Position numbers and translations under genes: made by a program. A stretch of DNA of 51,567 nucleotides. Origin: Candidatus Aenigmatarchaeota archaeon (lineage in GTDB: Archaea > Aenigmatarchaeota > Aenigmatarchaeia > GW2011-AR5 > JACRAC01). Below, piece after piece: positions 8,576 to 51,521 of this stretch. The DNA lies in contig JAWCMQ010000001.1 of NCBI GenBank assembly GCA_039091255.1, positions 117,976 through 169,542 on the forward strand, given 5' to 3'. Numbering within the stretch: the first letter of the stretch is position 1; every line of letters starts with the position of its first letter. Under the pieces are notes generated by a model. That model made no database searches. It saw only the letters and a list, made by a program, of their open reading frames with translations, and was not told the origin of the DNA.

Positions 8576-9052
8576 TCATGGCAGGAGGCCCTTCTTCTCA
8601 GCCGCGCGGGCCATTATCTTGCACACATGCCAGTTTATCCGCGGGAATTCATTGCGGTTGAAGTCTGCTTTCAGATTGTATATGACATCCAGCGCAATCG
8701 CGACAGCAGGGCTGCGGCTCATCCCGGCATAGCAGTGGACGAGCACGTCCTCGAAACTGCCGCGGCATTGCGCAAAGTCGTCCAGGATTTTCGCCGCCAT
8801 GCCTTCGTCGAATGGCACGAGCTTTGTGGGATCGGCACCTGCGCCTTGCGCCCACTCCTCAAGCGTCTGGCCTTCGTGAAGGTCCACATCGTCAAACGCA
8901 TATTCCAGGACGCGCACATATCCGTGCTGCAGCGGCTTGTAGCATCGCTTGCCCATGCCAGACGACTCGCTGCCGAATATGCGTATCGCAAGCGTCGGTG
9001 CGCGCGGCACGTACGCCGCAGCTTCCTCTTTGCCGCAGATGATGAACTTCAT
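8576..9052 (-). CDS. small Cys-based protein phosphatase-like protein (CX5R)
   Basis: 158 aa with the motif VHCYAGMSRS (HCxxGxxRS), characteristic of dual-specificity/PTP-fold phosphatases. ATG at 9052. Confidence 0.55.
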   Translation of the reverse strand: MKFIICGKEEAAAYVPRAPTLAIRIFGSESSGMGKRCYKPLQHGYVRVLEYAFDDVDLHEGQTLEEWAQGAGADPTKLVPFDEGMAAKILDDFAQCRGSFEDVLVHCYAGMSRSPAVAIALDVIYNLKADFNRNEFPRINWHVCKIMARAAEKKGLLP

Positions 9053-9064
9053 GGACTAGACCGT

Positions 9065-12000
9065 CTATCGAAACCACGTGGGCGGAGAAAATAGCTTTGC
9101 GGCGTTTACCGAATTCAGCGCGTCGATGATGCGTTGCAACTCAAGATTTCCGCCAGGCAGATAGGAAGAAACATGGACATCGGTAACCGTGCACGAATTG
9201 CCGTCACCGTCGCCTACAGGCATGCTCCAGTGAGATTCCAGAACGACGCCAAAGTCTTTATCGTCTACAAATATGCTGTTGAAGTTCTGTTCGTAACTTC
9301 CATAAACAGGCAAACTTTTGGTGCCATCAGGAGAAGTAATCAGGATATGGTCAGACCGAACTTGTATCAAGGCACCATTCGAGGCGATCAGGATGCTATT
9401 TGAGTTGAGGGCATATTTGCCGTCCCTCACATAAGTTCGCGGCAGGCACGATAACTCCGAATTTCCTGGGAAATCGGCGACTCTGCATTCCGCGGGGTGA
9501 TGATACGCATAAAATTCCGTATCTATACATGGCGAACCTACCTCCTCAGCCTCGTCCACAAGCATAAGGACTAATGTTCCAGCTTTGCTGAGTAGGAATC
9601 GAAGTGGAAGAAACAATGTCCCGACGAGCGATGCCGCACCGCGCTTACTTGCGAATATTGACAGTCTTGAACCTATGATGCTCAAAAGTTTGACATACGA
9701 GCTCTTTGACAAAATAAGCTCTTCGGGTGTGTAAGCGCTCAGAACCTCAGCGACCGAGGGGGTGAGTTTCGTAGGAATAATTTCCTTGATGACGTTGTCC
9801 GTAACGCTGAAGAAGCGCCCACCGTAATTAAAGACATGAGCGTCGAACGGCTTCCTTCCGGCTACATTTCTGATGATGTTGGCATGAGGGATGACGCGGC
9901 TTCCAGAAGGCACACCGAAAAGATTTTCGGGTATACCTACCTCGCCCATGTGAGTCTGAAGGAATGTAATACCATACTCTTCGAGAACTTTGCGATCGGC
10001 GGAGAGAAGTTTGAAGGTTAGAAATCCTGTGGAGCTCAGGAAGATCGAACCTGGTGGATAATCGGTGCTGACCGCTTCGCCATACTCGCAATCGGTTTCG
10101 CATTCGGGTTCAGATTCAGAAGCTTCAATGCAAGTTATGCTGCAATTGTAATACTCTAAAGATATGGAAGGCGCGGTGTGCTCATAATCGAGAATTCTCC
10201 CGCTAGCTTGATCGTATATGCTAAGCAAGGCGCTATAGCTTCCGCGTGCTACATCATCCGGAATCTTGAATTCTCGCCAATACCACGCCTCTCCTGGTAG
10301 CGCCCAGACTGTGAGCGCATTAGCTGGGTCGCTATAGCGCACTAATCCATCTTCACTTATCAGCTCCCCGTCGAGCACGACCGGGTATAAGTTGTCATGC
10401 GGATTCATGATGCGATAGCGGATGGTAAATGAGTCTCCCGGACCTAATGTTGGGTTTCTGGGATCAAACTCCCACCCGGAGATATCAAGAGATTGGGAAG
10501 GCATGGCAGGAAGCTTCACAAGCAAATTGTTCCCATTCGCATCCTGGATATGGAAGTCGTCGACAAAAACCTTGCCCCATCCGGTAGCTATGCTGTCCAC
10601 CACATAGATGTAAACTGTCTTGCCAACGTATTGAGACAGGCCGGTACAGTACTCTTCAAAGAACACATCAGTGGCGCGGAGGCTGGTCACCGAGCAGATA
10701 GTAGAATCATCGGACGCATCCTTAAGGAAAACACCGCTCCCGCCGCCCCCTCCGCCTGCTCTCAGGTACCTGAGGCGGTATGCGCCTTCCGGCAGTATGA
10801 AATCAGCAGAGCGCATTGCACCCATTCCGTTGTTTCCGCCAAGATATGCATAATTTGCGCCTTGAAAGTTCTCGCCCTTGCAGACGAAATCGACGCCGTC
10901 TATTCCCACGCCGACCGATATGCCGGGCGAATTGCCCGTTCCGCTCAGCACGGTCCAGTTTCTGGGGTCGATCCTTTCGCTGCAGCCGCTTATCACGGAA
11001 TCGGCTTCGAAATCGTGATTTGGAATCTCAACCCCTTCTCCGAGCGACTGCTGAGGAGATGAAACCTGAAACGTTTTTGCGGCGCACGAACCGCCGCTAC
11101 CGCTATCCAGGCATGCTTTTATCGTGTGAGGACCTATAGAAAGGGCGTATAGTAAATTATGGTTGTCGGTGTATGACGCTTTCGGCGCTATCGGGGATGC
11201 TATCAAGACGCTTTTTACATCATAGCCGTCGATAGAAACGGTATACGCTGGAGATATGTCGCTACAGCGATTATTCGTGACGGTAACTGAAAATTTCACG
11301 CCATTAACGTCGCCGTAAATTTTATCGATGCCTATCGCCGGTTCAGACGGAACGCATGACGGAACCGGCATGGCGGTCCAGCTTTTGGCGGCCCATGGTC
11401 CATCCCAATATGTGTAGCTGCTGGATCCGCCTGTGCCGCCATCGCAGTGATAACGCACTCGGAACTCGCCTGCGCGTGACTGCAGAGTGGAATCTCCTAC
11501 TCCCATGAGCATGCTCTGTGTCACCGAAAACGATGCGCCTACCTGCACAGTGCTCCCGCGGGATCGCGACCCTAAAGGTATGCGCTCTGCCGTGTTGCCG
11601 TCGGAATCTAGGGAACCTGCGGCCTCTGCGTGCTTGTAAATCACAGCCTCGCAGCTGGAGTATTGCAGATGAGGACCGCCTATGGAGCCTACTGCCGTGA
11701 ACTGGACGGTTTCGCCTACGGTATACGAGTCTTTGATACCGCTTACAGTCGGCGCTTGGGCATCCGGCTCGCATTTGTTGTTTATGCACACCCAACCGGA
11801 ATCGCAGGGCGGATTGGAGTAATCGCATCCGTCAAGCTTGCTCAAGCTAAACGTTATTGTCTGCTCGGGCGGAACGGTTGCGCTGACAGTCGAAGATTTG
11901 TAGCCCGTTTTGGTAGCCGTAACCGCATAAGTTCCGGCAGGGAGCGATTGGATTGTGCACGCGTACCGCACTCCGTCCCAACCTGTCGTGCAGGATTTCC

Positions 12001-12625
12001 CTGACGTGGATACGAGAACACTGTCTACGTTGGTTATTGCCATTATTGAGTAGGTGGAAGGTCCAAAAACGTTCACCGTCCTCTCCCTTACCGGCCAACC
12101 TTGCTGGTCAGTCGTTCCTGATGATGGATCCCGCTGGCAGGAGCTGAAATCGCTATTGCACAATGCCGCTCGAAAGTATATCGAAAGAGTTCCGCTAGCC
12201 CCGGCTTTGGGGCGGGCCACAACAGACACGGTTTTTCTTGTATTGGACGACCAGCTCCCGGAAAACTCGACTAGCGGGTAACTGGCCTTTATAGCCGCCC
12301 CGTTTTTGTCGTATATCGAATCTCCCGCGCGGTAAAGTTTGCCGGAGCCGAGATCTCCGCTCCAGGAAACGACGTCCCAATTCGGAAATGAAAGCGAGAT
12401 GTAGCCGTTCGGGTAGCTGCTGCCCGTGTTGTCGTAGCTGACTGTTATGTTCGTCGTCTCATCTGCGTTTATTGTGCTTGGTGACGTGCCGCTGCTGACA
12501 TAGATTATGGCACCAAAGGACGGGCATGCCAGAAGCGAAAAAGCCGCGAAGAATAACAGAACTTTTAGAGAATGAGAAGTAGAAAGACGCGAACCGCGCA
12601 CGGAAATGCGATCGCAGTAACCCAT
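9065..12625 (-). CDS. large secreted multidomain cysteine-rich protein, function unknown
   Basis: 1186-aa uninterrupted ORF. It has an N-terminal signal-like LKVLLFFAAFSLLACPSFGA, beta-rich repeats, a TYAVTATKTGYKSSTVSATV carboxypeptidase-regulatory-like segment, many Cys pairs and a Gly6 run. One hydrophobic stretch (GAASLVGTLFLPLRFLL...TLVLMLV) lies about 200 aa from the C-terminus. Confidence 0.7.
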   Translation of the reverse strand: MGYCDRISVRGSRLSTSHSLKVLLFFAAFSLLACPSFGAIIYVSSGTSPSTINADETTNITVSYDNTGSSYPNGYISLSFPNWDVVSWSGDLGSGKLYRAGDSIYDKNGAAIKASYPLVEFSGSWSSNTRKTVSVVARPKAGASGTLSIYFRAALCNSDFSSCQRDPSSGTTDQQGWPVRERTVNVFGPSTYSIMAITNVDSVLVSTSGKSCTTGWDGVRYACTIQSLPAGTYAVTATKTGYKSSTVSATVPPEQTITFSLSKLDGCDYSNPPCDSGWVCINNKCEPDAQAPTVSGIKDSYTVGETVQFTAVGSIGGPHLQYSSCEAVIYKHAEAAGSLDSDGNTAERIPLGSRSRGSTVQVGASFSVTQSMLMGVGDSTLQSRAGEFRVRYHCDGGTGGSSSYTYWDGPWAAKSWTAMPVPSCVPSEPAIGIDKIYGDVNGVKFSVTVTNNRCSDISPAYTVSIDGYDVKSVLIASPIAPKASYTDNHNLLYALSIGPHTIKACLDSGSGGSCAAKTFQVSSPQQSLGEGVEIPNHDFEADSVISGCSERIDPRNWTVLSGTGNSPGISVGVGIDGVDFVCKGENFQGANYAYLGGNNGMGAMRSADFILPEGAYRLRYLRAGGGGGGSGVFLKDASDDSTICSVTSLRATDVFFEEYCTGLSQYVGKTVYIYVVDSIATGWGKVFVDDFHIQDANGNNLLVKLPAMPSQSLDISGWEFDPRNPTLGPGDSFTIRYRIMNPHDNLYPVVLDGELISEDGLVRYSDPANALTVWALPGEAWYWREFKIPDDVARGSYSALLSIYDQASGRILDYEHTAPSISLEYYNCSITCIEASESEPECETDCEYGEAVSTDYPPGSIFLSSTGFLTFKLLSADRKVLEEYGITFLQTHMGEVGIPENLFGVPSGSRVIPHANIIRNVAGRKPFDAHVFNYGGRFFSVTDNVIKEIIPTKLTPSVAEVLSAYTPEELILSKSSYVKLLSIIGSRLSIFASKRGAASLVGTLFLPLRFLLSKAGTLVLMLVDEAEEVGSPCIDTEFYAYHHPAECRVADFPGNSELSCLPRTYVRDGKYALNSNSILIASNGALIQVRSDHILITSPDGTKSLPVYGSYEQNFNSIFVDDKDFGVVLESHWSMPVGDGDGNSCTVTDVHVSSYLPGGNLELQRIIDALNSVNAAKLFSPPTWFR

Positions 12626-12658: not shown

Positions 12659-12734
12659 CGAAAAGTTCGCCGCGAAATGCTATCGCGGTTGCTGGATTGC
12701 CGACCTCAGCCTTGCACGGCTTCGCGTACACGGA

Positions 12735-12937
12735 TGGGCCCGACGGGATATTCGGCGCAGCCGAATAGGCCAGCGAAGCTCTGCTTCAGCTGCGCATTCG
12801 AACCCGCAACAGCCTGCTTTCTTCAGCTTTCCATCAGCGTTTTCGTTGGACGCTGACAGCTCCTTTTCCGCCAGCGCTTTTGCGCTAGCAAAAGGGCTGT
12901 AAGAGGCAGGTACTCTACCAGGTTGAGCTACGGGCCC
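12735..12937 (-). tRNA. tRNA-Lys (CUU) with two introns (81 nt at 37/38; 48 nt in the T-loop)
   Basis: Exons are 12937-12900, 12818-12796 and 12747-12735, giving a 74-nt cloverleaf. The acceptor GGGCCCG/CGGGCCC pairs 7 of 7 and the D stem is GCTC/GAGT. The anticodon stem is CCTGC/GCAGG with loop CTCTTAA. The T arm is GCGGG-TTCGAAT-CCCGT and the discriminator is A. Confidence 0.85.
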
Positions 12938-12962
12938 TTGACTTGAATTTGGCAAAAGGAAT

Positions 12963-12970
12963 GTATTAAA
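12963..12970 (-). promoter_or_regulatory. TATA box for tRNA-Lys
   Basis: TTTAATAC on the minus strand, 26 nt upstream of the tRNA 5' end at 12937. Confidence 0.55.
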
Positions 12971-13033: not shown

Positions 13034-13966
13034 TCACTTCTCGCATCGCGCAAGCGTGTAAGAACCGTCTTCTGTCGGGTAAATCCTGACATCCGTAAAG
13101 TGCCTGTTGAGATTTTCTCCGAACTCTTCGATTTTGTAATGGTAGCAGAACGCGACGACAAGTTGGTCGCCCTTTTTGAAATCGATTCGTTTATCGCCGT
13201 GCGAAACGCTCCTGTCGGCATTTATTTTGTAGTAGAAGTCCAACCTCGAATTTCTGAACTTCACGTCATATTCCAAATCGGCCAAATCCAGCCCGAGCTG
13301 CGCAGGCACGTGGCTGAAGAAGCATTCCGACACCTTGCTCCTCTTGAGCTGGCTTATAGCTTCCTCGCCCAGCTTGCCGTTGTCGAGCCCGCTCCCTACG
13401 ATTAAGGCGTCCCTTTCACGCATCCCTTCGGCGATTTCGCCAAGAATCTTATGAGTCTCGAAATTGCCTACCGTGTTGCCCATGAGCATGAACATGCATC
13501 TGTCAAAGCCGCCTGACCGAAGGTGAGGCGACAGCTCCTCCAGGCGCTCGAAATCATGCACGCTCCACGTCTCTTTTACGGCCGCGATGCCCAGCTTTCC
13601 GACCGCTTCGGCTGCGCGATCTACCATAAATCTGCTTATGTCGATTGGGCAATATCTGATTGCGCATTTTCCATAAAGGTGCTCGATAATTGGGACAGCT
13701 TTTCTTCCATCGCCGCATCCGAGGTCGACGATGTTGAGCGGCCCGTCTGCCAGGCCGCTGACAATTTCAGCCGCATGCTTTCTCAAAAGTCCCATCTCTT
13801 TCAGCCCGCCTTTGTACCCCTCCTCGTTCAGGTATTCGAGATAGCCGCGTGCCTGCTCTGGCATCAGGTACCAAAGCTTCGAATCGTCTACGCGCCAAAC
13901 CCTCGCGCCATCTTCGTGCGCGCATCCGTTTTTGATGAGCCTGTCGAAGATAGGATTATCCGCCAT
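13034..13966 (-). CDS. SAM-dependent methyltransferase, EgtD-like (histidine-specific methyltransferase fold)
   Basis: VDLGCGDGRKA SAM motif, then MLMGNTVGNF, LIVGSGLDN and the C-terminal ...FKKGDQLVVAFCYHYKIEEF...YTLARCEK. These are collinear with EgtD/Methyltransf_33 landmarks. ATG at 13966; the track start at 14044 is TTG and would overlap the rhomboid gene. Confidence 0.6.
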   Translation of the reverse strand: MADNPIFDRLIKNGCAHEDGARVWRVDDSKLWYLMPEQARGYLEYLNEEGYKGGLKEMGLLRKHAAEIVSGLADGPLNIVDLGCGDGRKAVPIIEHLYGKCAIRYCPIDISRFMVDRAAEAVGKLGIAAVKETWSVHDFERLEELSPHLRSGGFDRCMFMLMGNTVGNFETHKILGEIAEGMRERDALIVGSGLDNGKLGEEAISQLKRSKVSECFFSHVPAQLGLDLADLEYDVKFRNSRLDFYYKINADRSVSHGDKRIDFKKGDQLVVAFCYHYKIEEFGENLNRHFTDVRIYPTEDGSYTLARCEK

Positions 13967-31039: not shown

Positions 31040-31167
31040 AGCGGAGTAGAGCAGCCTGGAGTGCTCGCGAGGCCCATACAGCCCTTTTGTTCGCTGCGCT
31101 CACGAAAGCGCTGGCGGAAAAGGCTTGTGTTACCTCGAGGTCGCTGGTTCAAATCCAGCCTCCGCTA
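31040..31167 (+). tRNA. tRNA-Met (CAU) with a 53-nt intron at 37/38; A1:U72 is initiator-like
   Basis: Exons are 31040-31078 and 31132-31167. The acceptor AGCGGAG/CTCCGCT pairs 7 of 7 and the D stem is GAGC/GCTC. The anticodon stem is CGAGG/CCTCG with loop CCCATAA (anticodon at 31075-31077). The T arm is GCTGG-TTCAAAT-CCAGC and the discriminator is A. A CAU anticodon could also be Ile2. Confidence 0.8.
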
Positions 31168-51164: not shown

Positions 51165-51521
51165 TGCCGGGGGTCGGATTTGAACCGACGAACCCAATCC
51201 TCACCCTTTGCTTTTCCGTGAACGCTTTTGCGAGCGGAGCGAGCAAACGGGTTCTAAGGGACAAGGTCCCTTAATCGCAATGCGACTTCTGAGCTTCGCA
51301 TTTTCCTAAGCATCGCATGCTTGGCATCTTGCGCCTTTTTCTGTAAGCCCTTTTCCGATTTCATCGGAAAAGCGCTTGCGAAAACGGAAGCATGTTCGCT
51401 GCTTTCCTTTCCGCTAACGCTTGTCCGGAAGAGGTTGCGGAAAACGGAAGCAGACATGCTCCCTTCCTTTCCGTTAACGCTTTCCCCCGGAAAGGGTTAG
51501 ACCAGACTTGGCTACCCCGGC
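51165..51521 (-). tRNA. tRNA-Leu (UAG), 357-nt gene with multiple introns (hand model: four)
   Basis: The 5' end is GCCGGGG-TA-GCC-AAGTCTGG... (51521 downward). The 3' end is GTCGG-TTCAAAT-CCGAC-CCCCGGC-A (51189-51165). The anticodon loop CTTAGGA has its first six residues (C32-G37) at 51310-51305, and in the model A38 is supplied by 51267. Proposed exons are about 51521-51499, 51337-51328, 51311-51305, 51267-51253 and 51197-51165. Gene presence has high confidence and the exon map moderate. Confidence 0.7.
51361..51480 (-). repeat. tandem approximately 60-nt duplication inside tRNA-Leu intron 1
   Basis: Unit 1 (51480-51421) is GCGTTAACGGAAAGGAAGGGAGCATGTCTGCTTCCGTTTTCCGCAA.... Unit 2 (51420-51361) is GCGTTAGCGGAAAGGAAAGCAGCGAACATGCTTCCGTTTTCGCAA.... 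Each can fold as a long imperfect hairpin (CGGAAAGGAAG/CTTCCGTTTTCCG). Confidence 0.75.

Follow-up and report, generated by a model that had tools for sequence, protein, structure and literature searches.

A tRNA-Lys(CUU) gene interrupted by two predicted introns in a Candidatus Aenigmatarchaeota genome

A 203-nt segment in the genome of a Candidatus Aenigmatarchaeota archaeon is very probably a functional chromosomal tRNA-Lys(CUU) gene, whose precursor of ~203 nt would carry two protein-spliced archaeal introns, one in the anticodon loop and the other in the T-loop. This reading is based on the sequence, the fold of the unspliced RNA, the exact reconstitution of a canonical tRNA and exon boundaries that are fixed by orthologues. 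The DNA was taken from assembly GCA_039091255.1 (contig JAWCMQ010000001.1, positions 117,976-169,542 of the forward strand), and the whole stretch of 51,567 nt is referred to as the window, in whose numbering all features are listed (Table 1).

The proteins flanking the gene matched, at 100% identity, NCBI entries from a 251-kb contig that bear the name 'MAG: ... [Candidatus Aenigmatarchaeota archaeon]'. Pfam assigned window genes to archaeal exosome subunits, SBDS, proteasome alpha, Nre, TFS, Pus10, class I LysRS and a tRNase Z-like protein. Both the protein names and the archaeal marker genes indicate the archaeal host that bulge-helix-bulge (BHB) introns call for. Pfam scans of 40 ORFs revealed no EndA or RtcB gene in the 51.6-kb window.

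Table 1. Window coordinates of the predicted features of the tRNA-Lys(CUU) locus and of two companion tRNA genes
Feature	Coordinates	Strand	Description
Pre-tRNA-Lys(CUU) gene	12937..12735	-	203 nt, three exons and two introns, CCA not encoded
Exon 1	12900..12937	-	38 nt; tRNA positions 1-37: acceptor 5' strand, D arm, anticodon stem 5' strand, loop CUCUUA
Intron 1	12819..12899	-	81 nt at 37/38, relaxed BHB
Exon 2	12797..12818	-	22 nt; tRNA positions 38-59: A38, anticodon stem 3' strand, variable loop CUGUU, T stem 5' strand, UUCGAA
Intron 2	12749..12796	-	48 nt at 59/60, strict hBHBh'
Exon 3	12735..12748	-	14 nt; tRNA positions 60-73: U60, T stem 3' strand, acceptor 3' strand, discriminator A
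Extra hairpin TCAGCGT-CCAACGAAA-ACGCTGA	12834..12856	-	within intron 1; missing from homologous introns
Conserved intron core AAGCGCTGGCGGAAAAG	12863..12879	-	inside intron 1, 17 nt
TATA-box-like TTTAATAC	12963..12970	-	26-33 nt upstream of tRNA position 1, followed by leader AAATTCAAGTCAA
tRNA-iMet(CAT)	31040..31167	+	53-nt 37/38 intron (31079-31131), same intron family as Lys
Third tRNA-like gene	51165..51521	-	357 nt, three copies of the intron core

Gene structure and predicted spliced product

Read on the minus strand, the gene runs GGGCCCG-TA-GCTC-AACCTGGTA-GAGT-A-CCTGC-CTCTTA, 81 nt, A-GCAGG-CTGTT-GCGGG-TTCGAA(T), 48 nt, (T)CCCGT-CGGGCCC-A. The acceptor (GGGCCCG/CGGGCCC), D (GCTC/GAGT), anticodon (CCTGC/GCAGG) and T (GCGGG/CCCGT) stems are all present, and the anticodon loop (CTCTTA and A) and the T-loop (TTCGAAT) are each split by an insert. 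When pre-tRNA positions 39-119 (81 nt) and 142-189 or 143-190 (48 nt) were excised in silico, the 74-nt product was recognized by ARAGORN as a full-length tRNA-Lys(ctt) with a regular cloverleaf. U8, G18G19, U33, G53-C61, U54U55C56 and A58, as read from the ARAGORN model, were all kept. All single and double excisions that BHB motifs allow in the 203 nt were enumerated; one scheme alone generated a full-length tRNA, and it used the two motifs described below.

The unspliced 203 nt folded at -100.3 kcal/mol in RNAfold (z = -5.9), and none of 200 shuffles was equally stable. The acceptor, D and anticodon stems and both splice motifs coexisted in the MFE and centroid folds. An earlier note on this DNA had proposed a tRNA-Lys(CUU) with two introns at 12735-12937 and suggested RNAfold as a check; every sequence element that it listed was located at its coordinates, and the fold showed the cloverleaf stems together with the T-arm hBHBh'. 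The identical 203 nt were found in the independent Logan assembly L002. Logan contigs L001 and L003 both end at pre-tRNA position 97, within the TCAGCGT/ACGCTGA hairpin of intron 1, and this shared end is probably an assembly break at the inverted repeat. The TATA-box-like sequence upstream of the gene is a putative archaeal promoter element.

Standard searches overlooked the gene, as the earlier note had warned they might. ARAGORN in default mode found no tRNA in the window, and its anticodon-intron mode returned nothing for the 203-nt precursor. When long anticodon introns were allowed, ARAGORN reported the iMet gene and a mis-parsed third gene in the window, not the Lys gene. Rfam gave no match on the whole window, either at the gathering threshold or at E<=10; on the isolated Lys region it gave a mis-paired tRNA match of 16.5 bits, against a gathering score of 29. 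Altogether, the three tRNA genes of the window are all interrupted and were all missed by default ARAGORN and Rfam. The archaeal mode of tRNAscan-SE 2.0 has an iterative BHB routine (PMC8450103).

Splice motifs of the two introns

According to the BHB rule, a 4-bp helix lies between two 3-nt bulges; in canonical introns this central helix occupies positions 32-35, the first two anticodon bases among them, and position 37, behind which the cut is made, is the second nucleotide of its bulge (PMC4090602). Intron 2 has the strict form of this motif, with a 5-bp outer helix (GCGGG:CCCGU), a central helix UUCG:CGAA paired at 4/4 positions, the bulges AAU and UAU, and an inner helix of 11 bp, GCGCAGCUGAA/UUCGGCUGCGC in the RNAfold structure. 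The earlier note had placed an hBHBh' motif in the T-loop at about 59/60, and the motif was indeed seen in both the MFE and the centroid folds. Its 7-bp intron helix GCGCAGC:GCTGCGC is present, but forms only the outer part of the 11-bp helix. Of the two registers that it gave as equivalent, we chose 12796-12749 over 12795-12748, because, under the BHB rule, each 3-nt bulge is cut behind its second nucleotide. Cuts at these points restore the 7-nt T-loop UUCGAAU and the T stem. Intron 2 thus shows what is expected of an archaeal BHB intron: 3-nt bulges on opposite strands, a 4-bp helix, flanking helices and a canonical tRNA after removal.

BHB-shaped motifs with flanking helices of >=3 bp numbered 740 in the window and 765 in shuffles; strict motifs with an outer helix of >=5 bp and an inner helix of >=7 bp numbered 5 in the window and 1.9 +/- 1.4 in dinucleotide shuffles. 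The motif count was rejected as a significance test, the motif being without enrichment over shuffles. The significance of the T-loop BHB rests on placement and not on shape: its cut sites are exactly the two phosphodiesters whose cleavage restores the T-loop.

Intron 1, described in the earlier note as an 81-nt intron at 37/38 with a relaxed BHB, was found to have three of the four central pairs. In the central helix, CUCU:GAAG, C34 faces A as a mismatch and U35 pairs with G; the bulges are UAC and AAA, the inner helix has 3 bp, and the 5-bp anticodon stem serves as the outer helix. The C34·A mismatch is also kept in the orthologue at locus L023, as read from its sequence. Such a relaxed motif in the anticodon loop may require a broad-specificity EndA. 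The extra hairpin TCAGCGT/ACGCTGA, which the earlier note had also remarked on, was located within intron 1 (12856-12834), and a five-sequence alignment that included the iMet and L023 introns revealed that, of these introns, only the window's Lys intron has it, as an insertion. The possibility that intron 1 holds a box C/D guide RNA was considered and rejected: UGAUGG and CUGA lie just 4 nt apart near its 3' end, and no snoRNA or sRNA family was found by Rfam at threshold. Group I introns were rejected on size, the two inserts having 48 and 81 nt.

On this basis, transcription of the gene would be followed by EndA cleavage and ligation in the following order. Both splice motifs would form at once in the precursor, namely the relaxed bulge-helix-bulge in the anticodon arm, which holds the 81-nt intron at 37/38, and the strict hBHBh' in the T arm. 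In the latter, U54-G57 would pair with the CGAA at the 3' end of intron 2, and the bulges would consist of A58-A59 with the first intron base and of the last two intron bases with U60. EndA would cut after the second bulge nucleotide, that is, between 12900 and 12899, 12819 and 12818, 12797 and 12796, and 12749 and 12748, and an RtcB-type ligase would join the three exons of 38, 22 and 14 nt. RNase P and tRNase Z would trim the ends, and CCA, which the gene does not encode, would be added. Only after the removal of intron 2 would the tertiary core of T-loop and D-loop be able to form, and the same holds for T-loop modifications, for example the pseudouridines 54/55 of Pus10, an enzyme encoded in the window.

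Orthologous loci and the intron family

To find relatives, metagenome contigs were scanned with the 22-nt exon 2, and 14 matches were obtained, six at archaeal loci and eight bacterial. The bacterial matches were rejected as tRNA-Gly genes that contain the 22-mer by chance. The 22 nt of exon 2 were 100% identical in the six archaeal metagenome loci, and exon 3 (CCCGTCGGGCCCA) was identical in the orthologues. A degenerate pattern of the 5' exon, searched in genome contigs, matched only an AT-rich, intron-less Woesearchaeota tRNA-Lys, which is unrelated and was set aside.

The most informative locus is L019, for which synteny with the window was seen (in tblastx, amino-acid identity of 77% for TrpRS and 83% for the proteasome gene). 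Its tRNA-Lys is one continuous sequence of 74 nt, of which 73 are identical to the predicted spliced product; the sole difference is C6 to U, with the pairing to G67 kept. The BLAST HSPs between L019 and the window end at the predicted exon boundaries, one at 12900 and another spanning 12819-12796. In L019 and L011, a TATA-like TTTAATAA occurs at matching spacing and the leader AAATTCAAGTCAA is unchanged. At locus L023, whose rhomboid protein is 69% identical to that of the window, the tRNA-Lys(CUU) gene has 138 nt, with a 14-nt insert at 26/27 and a 50-nt intron at 37/38 that is homologous to intron 1. Its spliced tRNA-Lys is identical to that of the window at 67 of 74 positions and shows a compensatory change from C27:G43 to U27:A43.

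The T-loop intron was absent from all the orthologues found (L011, L019, L007, L012, L015, L020 and L023). Since it was found in no relative, its helices have no covariation support, and most simply it would represent a gain in the window's lineage. A 5-nt direct repeat, CGAAT...CGAAT, flanks the insert. The 59/60 intron may have arisen de novo and recently, by insertion of a hairpin into the T-loop UUCGAA with duplication of CGAAU; because UUCGAA is self-complementary, this duplication would automatically create the 4-bp helix and both 3-nt bulges. The pairing constraint by itself, though, would account for the repeat just as well. If true, such a hairpin insertion would illustrate the birth of a non-canonical intron and account for the recurrence of introns at 59/60. 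A search of viral contigs with the T-loop-intron pattern matched one phage tRNA, behind which CGAATATCCC occurs by chance.

Several other features of the orthologous loci were observed. In L019 (5813-5953, plus strand) and L011 (95-235, plus strand), the first 10 nt of the uninterrupted tRNA-Lys (GGGCCTGTAG) are found a second time in front of the gene, together with a hairpin-rich segment of 53 nt, and the TATA-like box and leader lie upstream of the first GGGCCTGTAG copy. This extra 5' segment can be read as a 5' intron, as a long leader or as the scar of an insertion that duplicated 10 nt of its target. Among the tRNA-Lys genes of L012, L007, L015, L020 and L023, an insert of 14-16 nt containing GCGCCA, placed between the D and anticodon stems (~26/27), occurs in four of the lineage variants. 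The anticodon-loop insert of the L012 type seems to lie at 35/36, and a strict BHB model failed to yield tRNA-Lys from this type of orthologue.

After the tRNA-Lys of L015 (minus strand), and in L025 and L026 (minus strand; at ~5431 of the L025 reverse strand), there is a conserved structured element of ~100 nt. It holds GATTCGAACCCTCGGGTTCGTGCTCAGAGA and two hairpins, whose stems vary between loci by compensatory changes, and at its end part of the tRNA 3' end is repeated (AATCCCGTCGG). L025 has a 3' fragment of the tRNA only, beside many small hypothetical genes. The element looks like the attachment site of an integrated element.

Compared with L019, L012 and L011, the window has lineage-specific genes on both flanks of tRNA-Lys (8576-12625 and 13034-13966). 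A DSPc-like phosphatase and a 1186-aa surface-type protein lie downstream of the tRNA gene, and an EgtD-like methyltransferase lies upstream. These lineage-specific genes fit a role of the tRNA-Lys locus as an insertion hot spot. No tRNA was found beside the nearest homologue of the adjacent methyltransferase (L005, 61% identity) or on the short contigs with the closest rhomboid homologues (L021 and L022, 83% and 80%), and L027-L030 were without synteny to the window.

The core of intron 1 recurs elsewhere in the window. The pattern AAGCGYTNNCGGAAARG had five matches (0.06 expected), at 12863-12879 (minus), 31106-31122 (plus), 51211-51227 (minus), 51406-51422 (minus) and 51466-51482 (minus), all on the sense strand and only inside the inserts of the three interrupted tRNA genes; this count is descriptive and not an independent test, because the motif was derived from the same sequences. 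The block TGGCGGAAA was invariant in five aligned introns. The iMet intron and the L023 Lys intron share CAGCCCTTTT...AAGCGCTGGCGGAAAAG with intron 1, which bears out the 'shared family core' of the earlier note, and CAGCCCTTTTG and AAAGCGCTGGCGGAAAAGG are common to the iMet intron and intron 1, which have identical blocks of 13 and 19 nt. The AAGCGYTNNCGGAAARG motif may be the mark of a mobile intron family or a protein-binding element. In viral contigs, the intron-core pattern had 112 matches, which is chance level.

The tRNA-iMet(CAT) gene has A1:U72 and the loop CCCAUA with C33, and in the BHB of its intron three of four central pairs form, with 4 bp in the inner helix and 5 bp in the outer one. 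The third tRNA-like gene has the acceptor GCCGGGG/CCCCGGC, an intact T arm (GTCGG-TTCAAAT-CCGAC) and a class-II-like D-loop start, and its RNA folds with z = -5.9. Its inserts amount to ~270 nt and include two tandem units of ~60 nt. A 57-nt insert at ~51197-51253 aligns by eye with the iMet intron along its length and is flanked by a 4/4 BHB in an apparent variable-arm loop. A hand-built tRNA-Leu(CAG) model for this gene was not accepted by ARAGORN, and BHB-constrained enumeration on 51165-51521 gave many weak, mutually inconsistent solutions. The gene possibly holds more than three introns.

Introns of the core family occur in the anticodon loops of tRNA-Lys and tRNA-iMet and at at least two places of the third, class-II-like tRNA. 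Near-alike introns in tRNAs of different identity and/or at different positions are the hallmark of a transposing intron family of the Thermoproteales type, and the window shows them. In addition, the set of inserts in the orthologous tRNA-Lys differs from one sister lineage to the next. The repeats of the core and the intron sets differing between orthologues suggest, from sequence comparison, an active intron turnover. It is conceivable, and we put it forward only tentatively, that this Aenigmatarchaeota lineage is undergoing a Thermoproteales-style tRNA-intron proliferation by a mobile intron family with the core AAGCGYUNNCGGAAARG.

Alternative readings and known systems

Whether the locus could be a decaying pseudogene was considered, in which two insertions would remain unspliced in a former tRNA-Lys and a functional copy would lie elsewhere in the genome. 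We regard this as unlikely. The exons are without decay, matching L019 at 73/74 and L023 at 67/74 with a compensatory pair, and both inserts sit in splice motifs whose cuts restore the tRNA exactly. The T-loop insert is unique to the window's lineage, as the pseudogene reading would have it, and the locus looks insertion-prone, given the partial tRNA-end duplications in L019, L015 and L025 and the lineage-specific flanking genes; however, it is a syntenic orthologue in which the promoter-like box and the leader are conserved. The window covers 51.6 kb of a 251-kb contig, so that a second, intron-less tRNA-Lys(CUU) could lie elsewhere. Small archaeal genomes usually have one gene per isoacceptor, which counts against such a copy.

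More improbable still is that the T-loop insert is the scar of a mobile element or hairpin with target duplication that only mimics a BHB and is removed inefficiently or never, leaving an aberrant T arm. The CGAAT direct repeat would suit such a scar, since duplication within the self-complementary UUCGAA would by itself give the UUCG:CGAA helix, and so would the 53-nt insert of L019 with its 10-nt flanking duplication at the 5' end of the same gene. An insertion origin is compatible with present-day splicing, and the two ideas differ only on removal. BHB-like shapes of comparable strength occur by chance about twice per window; nevertheless, the geometry here is exactly canonical, with 3-nt bulges, a 4-bp helix and flanks of 5 and 11 bp, and such geometry is the minimal EndA substrate irrespective of position (PMC5829648). 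An unspliced T arm, moreover, would be unable to form the universally required T-loop.

The reading as a 91-aa protein-coding gene (12680-12955, minus strand) with an incidental resemblance to tRNA is hardly credible, as its uninterrupted, TTG-started ORF crosses all three tRNA exons on their own strand and the 48-81-nt indels of relatives here would destroy any reading frame. The earlier note had stated that standard ORF calling reports this protein, which it called spurious; the ORF exists mechanically, but the 'call' is unsupported, because the ORF has no Pfam match and its exact sequence, like those of two overlapping ORFs, is missing from a collection of 15 billion proteins that includes NCBI proteins of the same MAG.

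The two-intron tRNA-Lys belongs to an already described archaeal gene structure, and it leaves the understanding of how such introns work unchanged. Archaeal tRNA introns at 59/60, several introns per gene and BHB-dependent splicing by EndA are established (PMC4090602, PMC5829648). According to PMC4090602 and PMC8450103, up to three introns per tRNA are known, and in Thermoproteales near-identical introns are found in different tRNAs ('intron transposition'), with sets that differ between close relatives. The multi-intron tRNAs of Pyrobaculum, Thermofilum and Caldivirga (Sugahara et al. 2008; Fujishima et al. 2010; both summarised in PMC4090602 and PMC8450103) resemble the present case in the 59/60 position and in shared introns. 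In contrast to these, the host here is a DPANN Aenigmatarchaeota MAG and not a crenarchaeon, the introns are long (81 and 48 nt, compared with typical medians of 12-25 nt), and the strict motif is at the non-canonical site while the relaxed one is at the canonical site.

Closer in phylogeny are the disrupted tRNAs of DPANN archaea with broad-specificity EndA (ARMAN-2 epsilon2, L3-loop alpha4; PMC3239211, PMC5829648), which belong to the same superphylum and show non-canonical and multiple introns. The literature searched contained no treatment of Aenigmatarchaeota tRNA genes, introns or EndA. The intron of Haloferax tRNA-Trp, which encodes a box C/D guide RNA (cited in PMC4090602), is like intron 1 a long anticodon-loop intron with conserved internal sequence, but the C/D architecture is missing from intron 1. 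A eukaryotic nuclear case also has T-arm and anticodon introns in one pre-tRNA and splicing by BHB-like motifs, with T-arm pseudouridylation linked to intron removal; it differs in its eukaryotic endonuclease and has no sequence relationship to the Aenigmatarchaeota gene.

The finding adds a DPANN phylum to the lineages with multi-intron tRNAs. DPANN lineages with an insert-bearing EndA have more disrupted tRNAs, incomplete tRNA sets have been attributed to undetected disrupted genes, and manual curation of DPANN tRNA sets has been called for (PMC5829648). Considering that all three tRNA genes of the window were missed, the tRNA complements of Aenigmatarchaeota and other DPANN MAGs will be under-counted, and 'missing tRNAs' in DPANN MAGs should not be taken as host dependence. 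L019, L023, L012 and the window share the exons and differ in their intron sets, and thus form a series of orthologues in which intron gain and loss can be studied. It is predicted that the EndA of this lineage would accept both a strict BHB that lies outside the anticodon arm and, within that arm, one with a mismatch.
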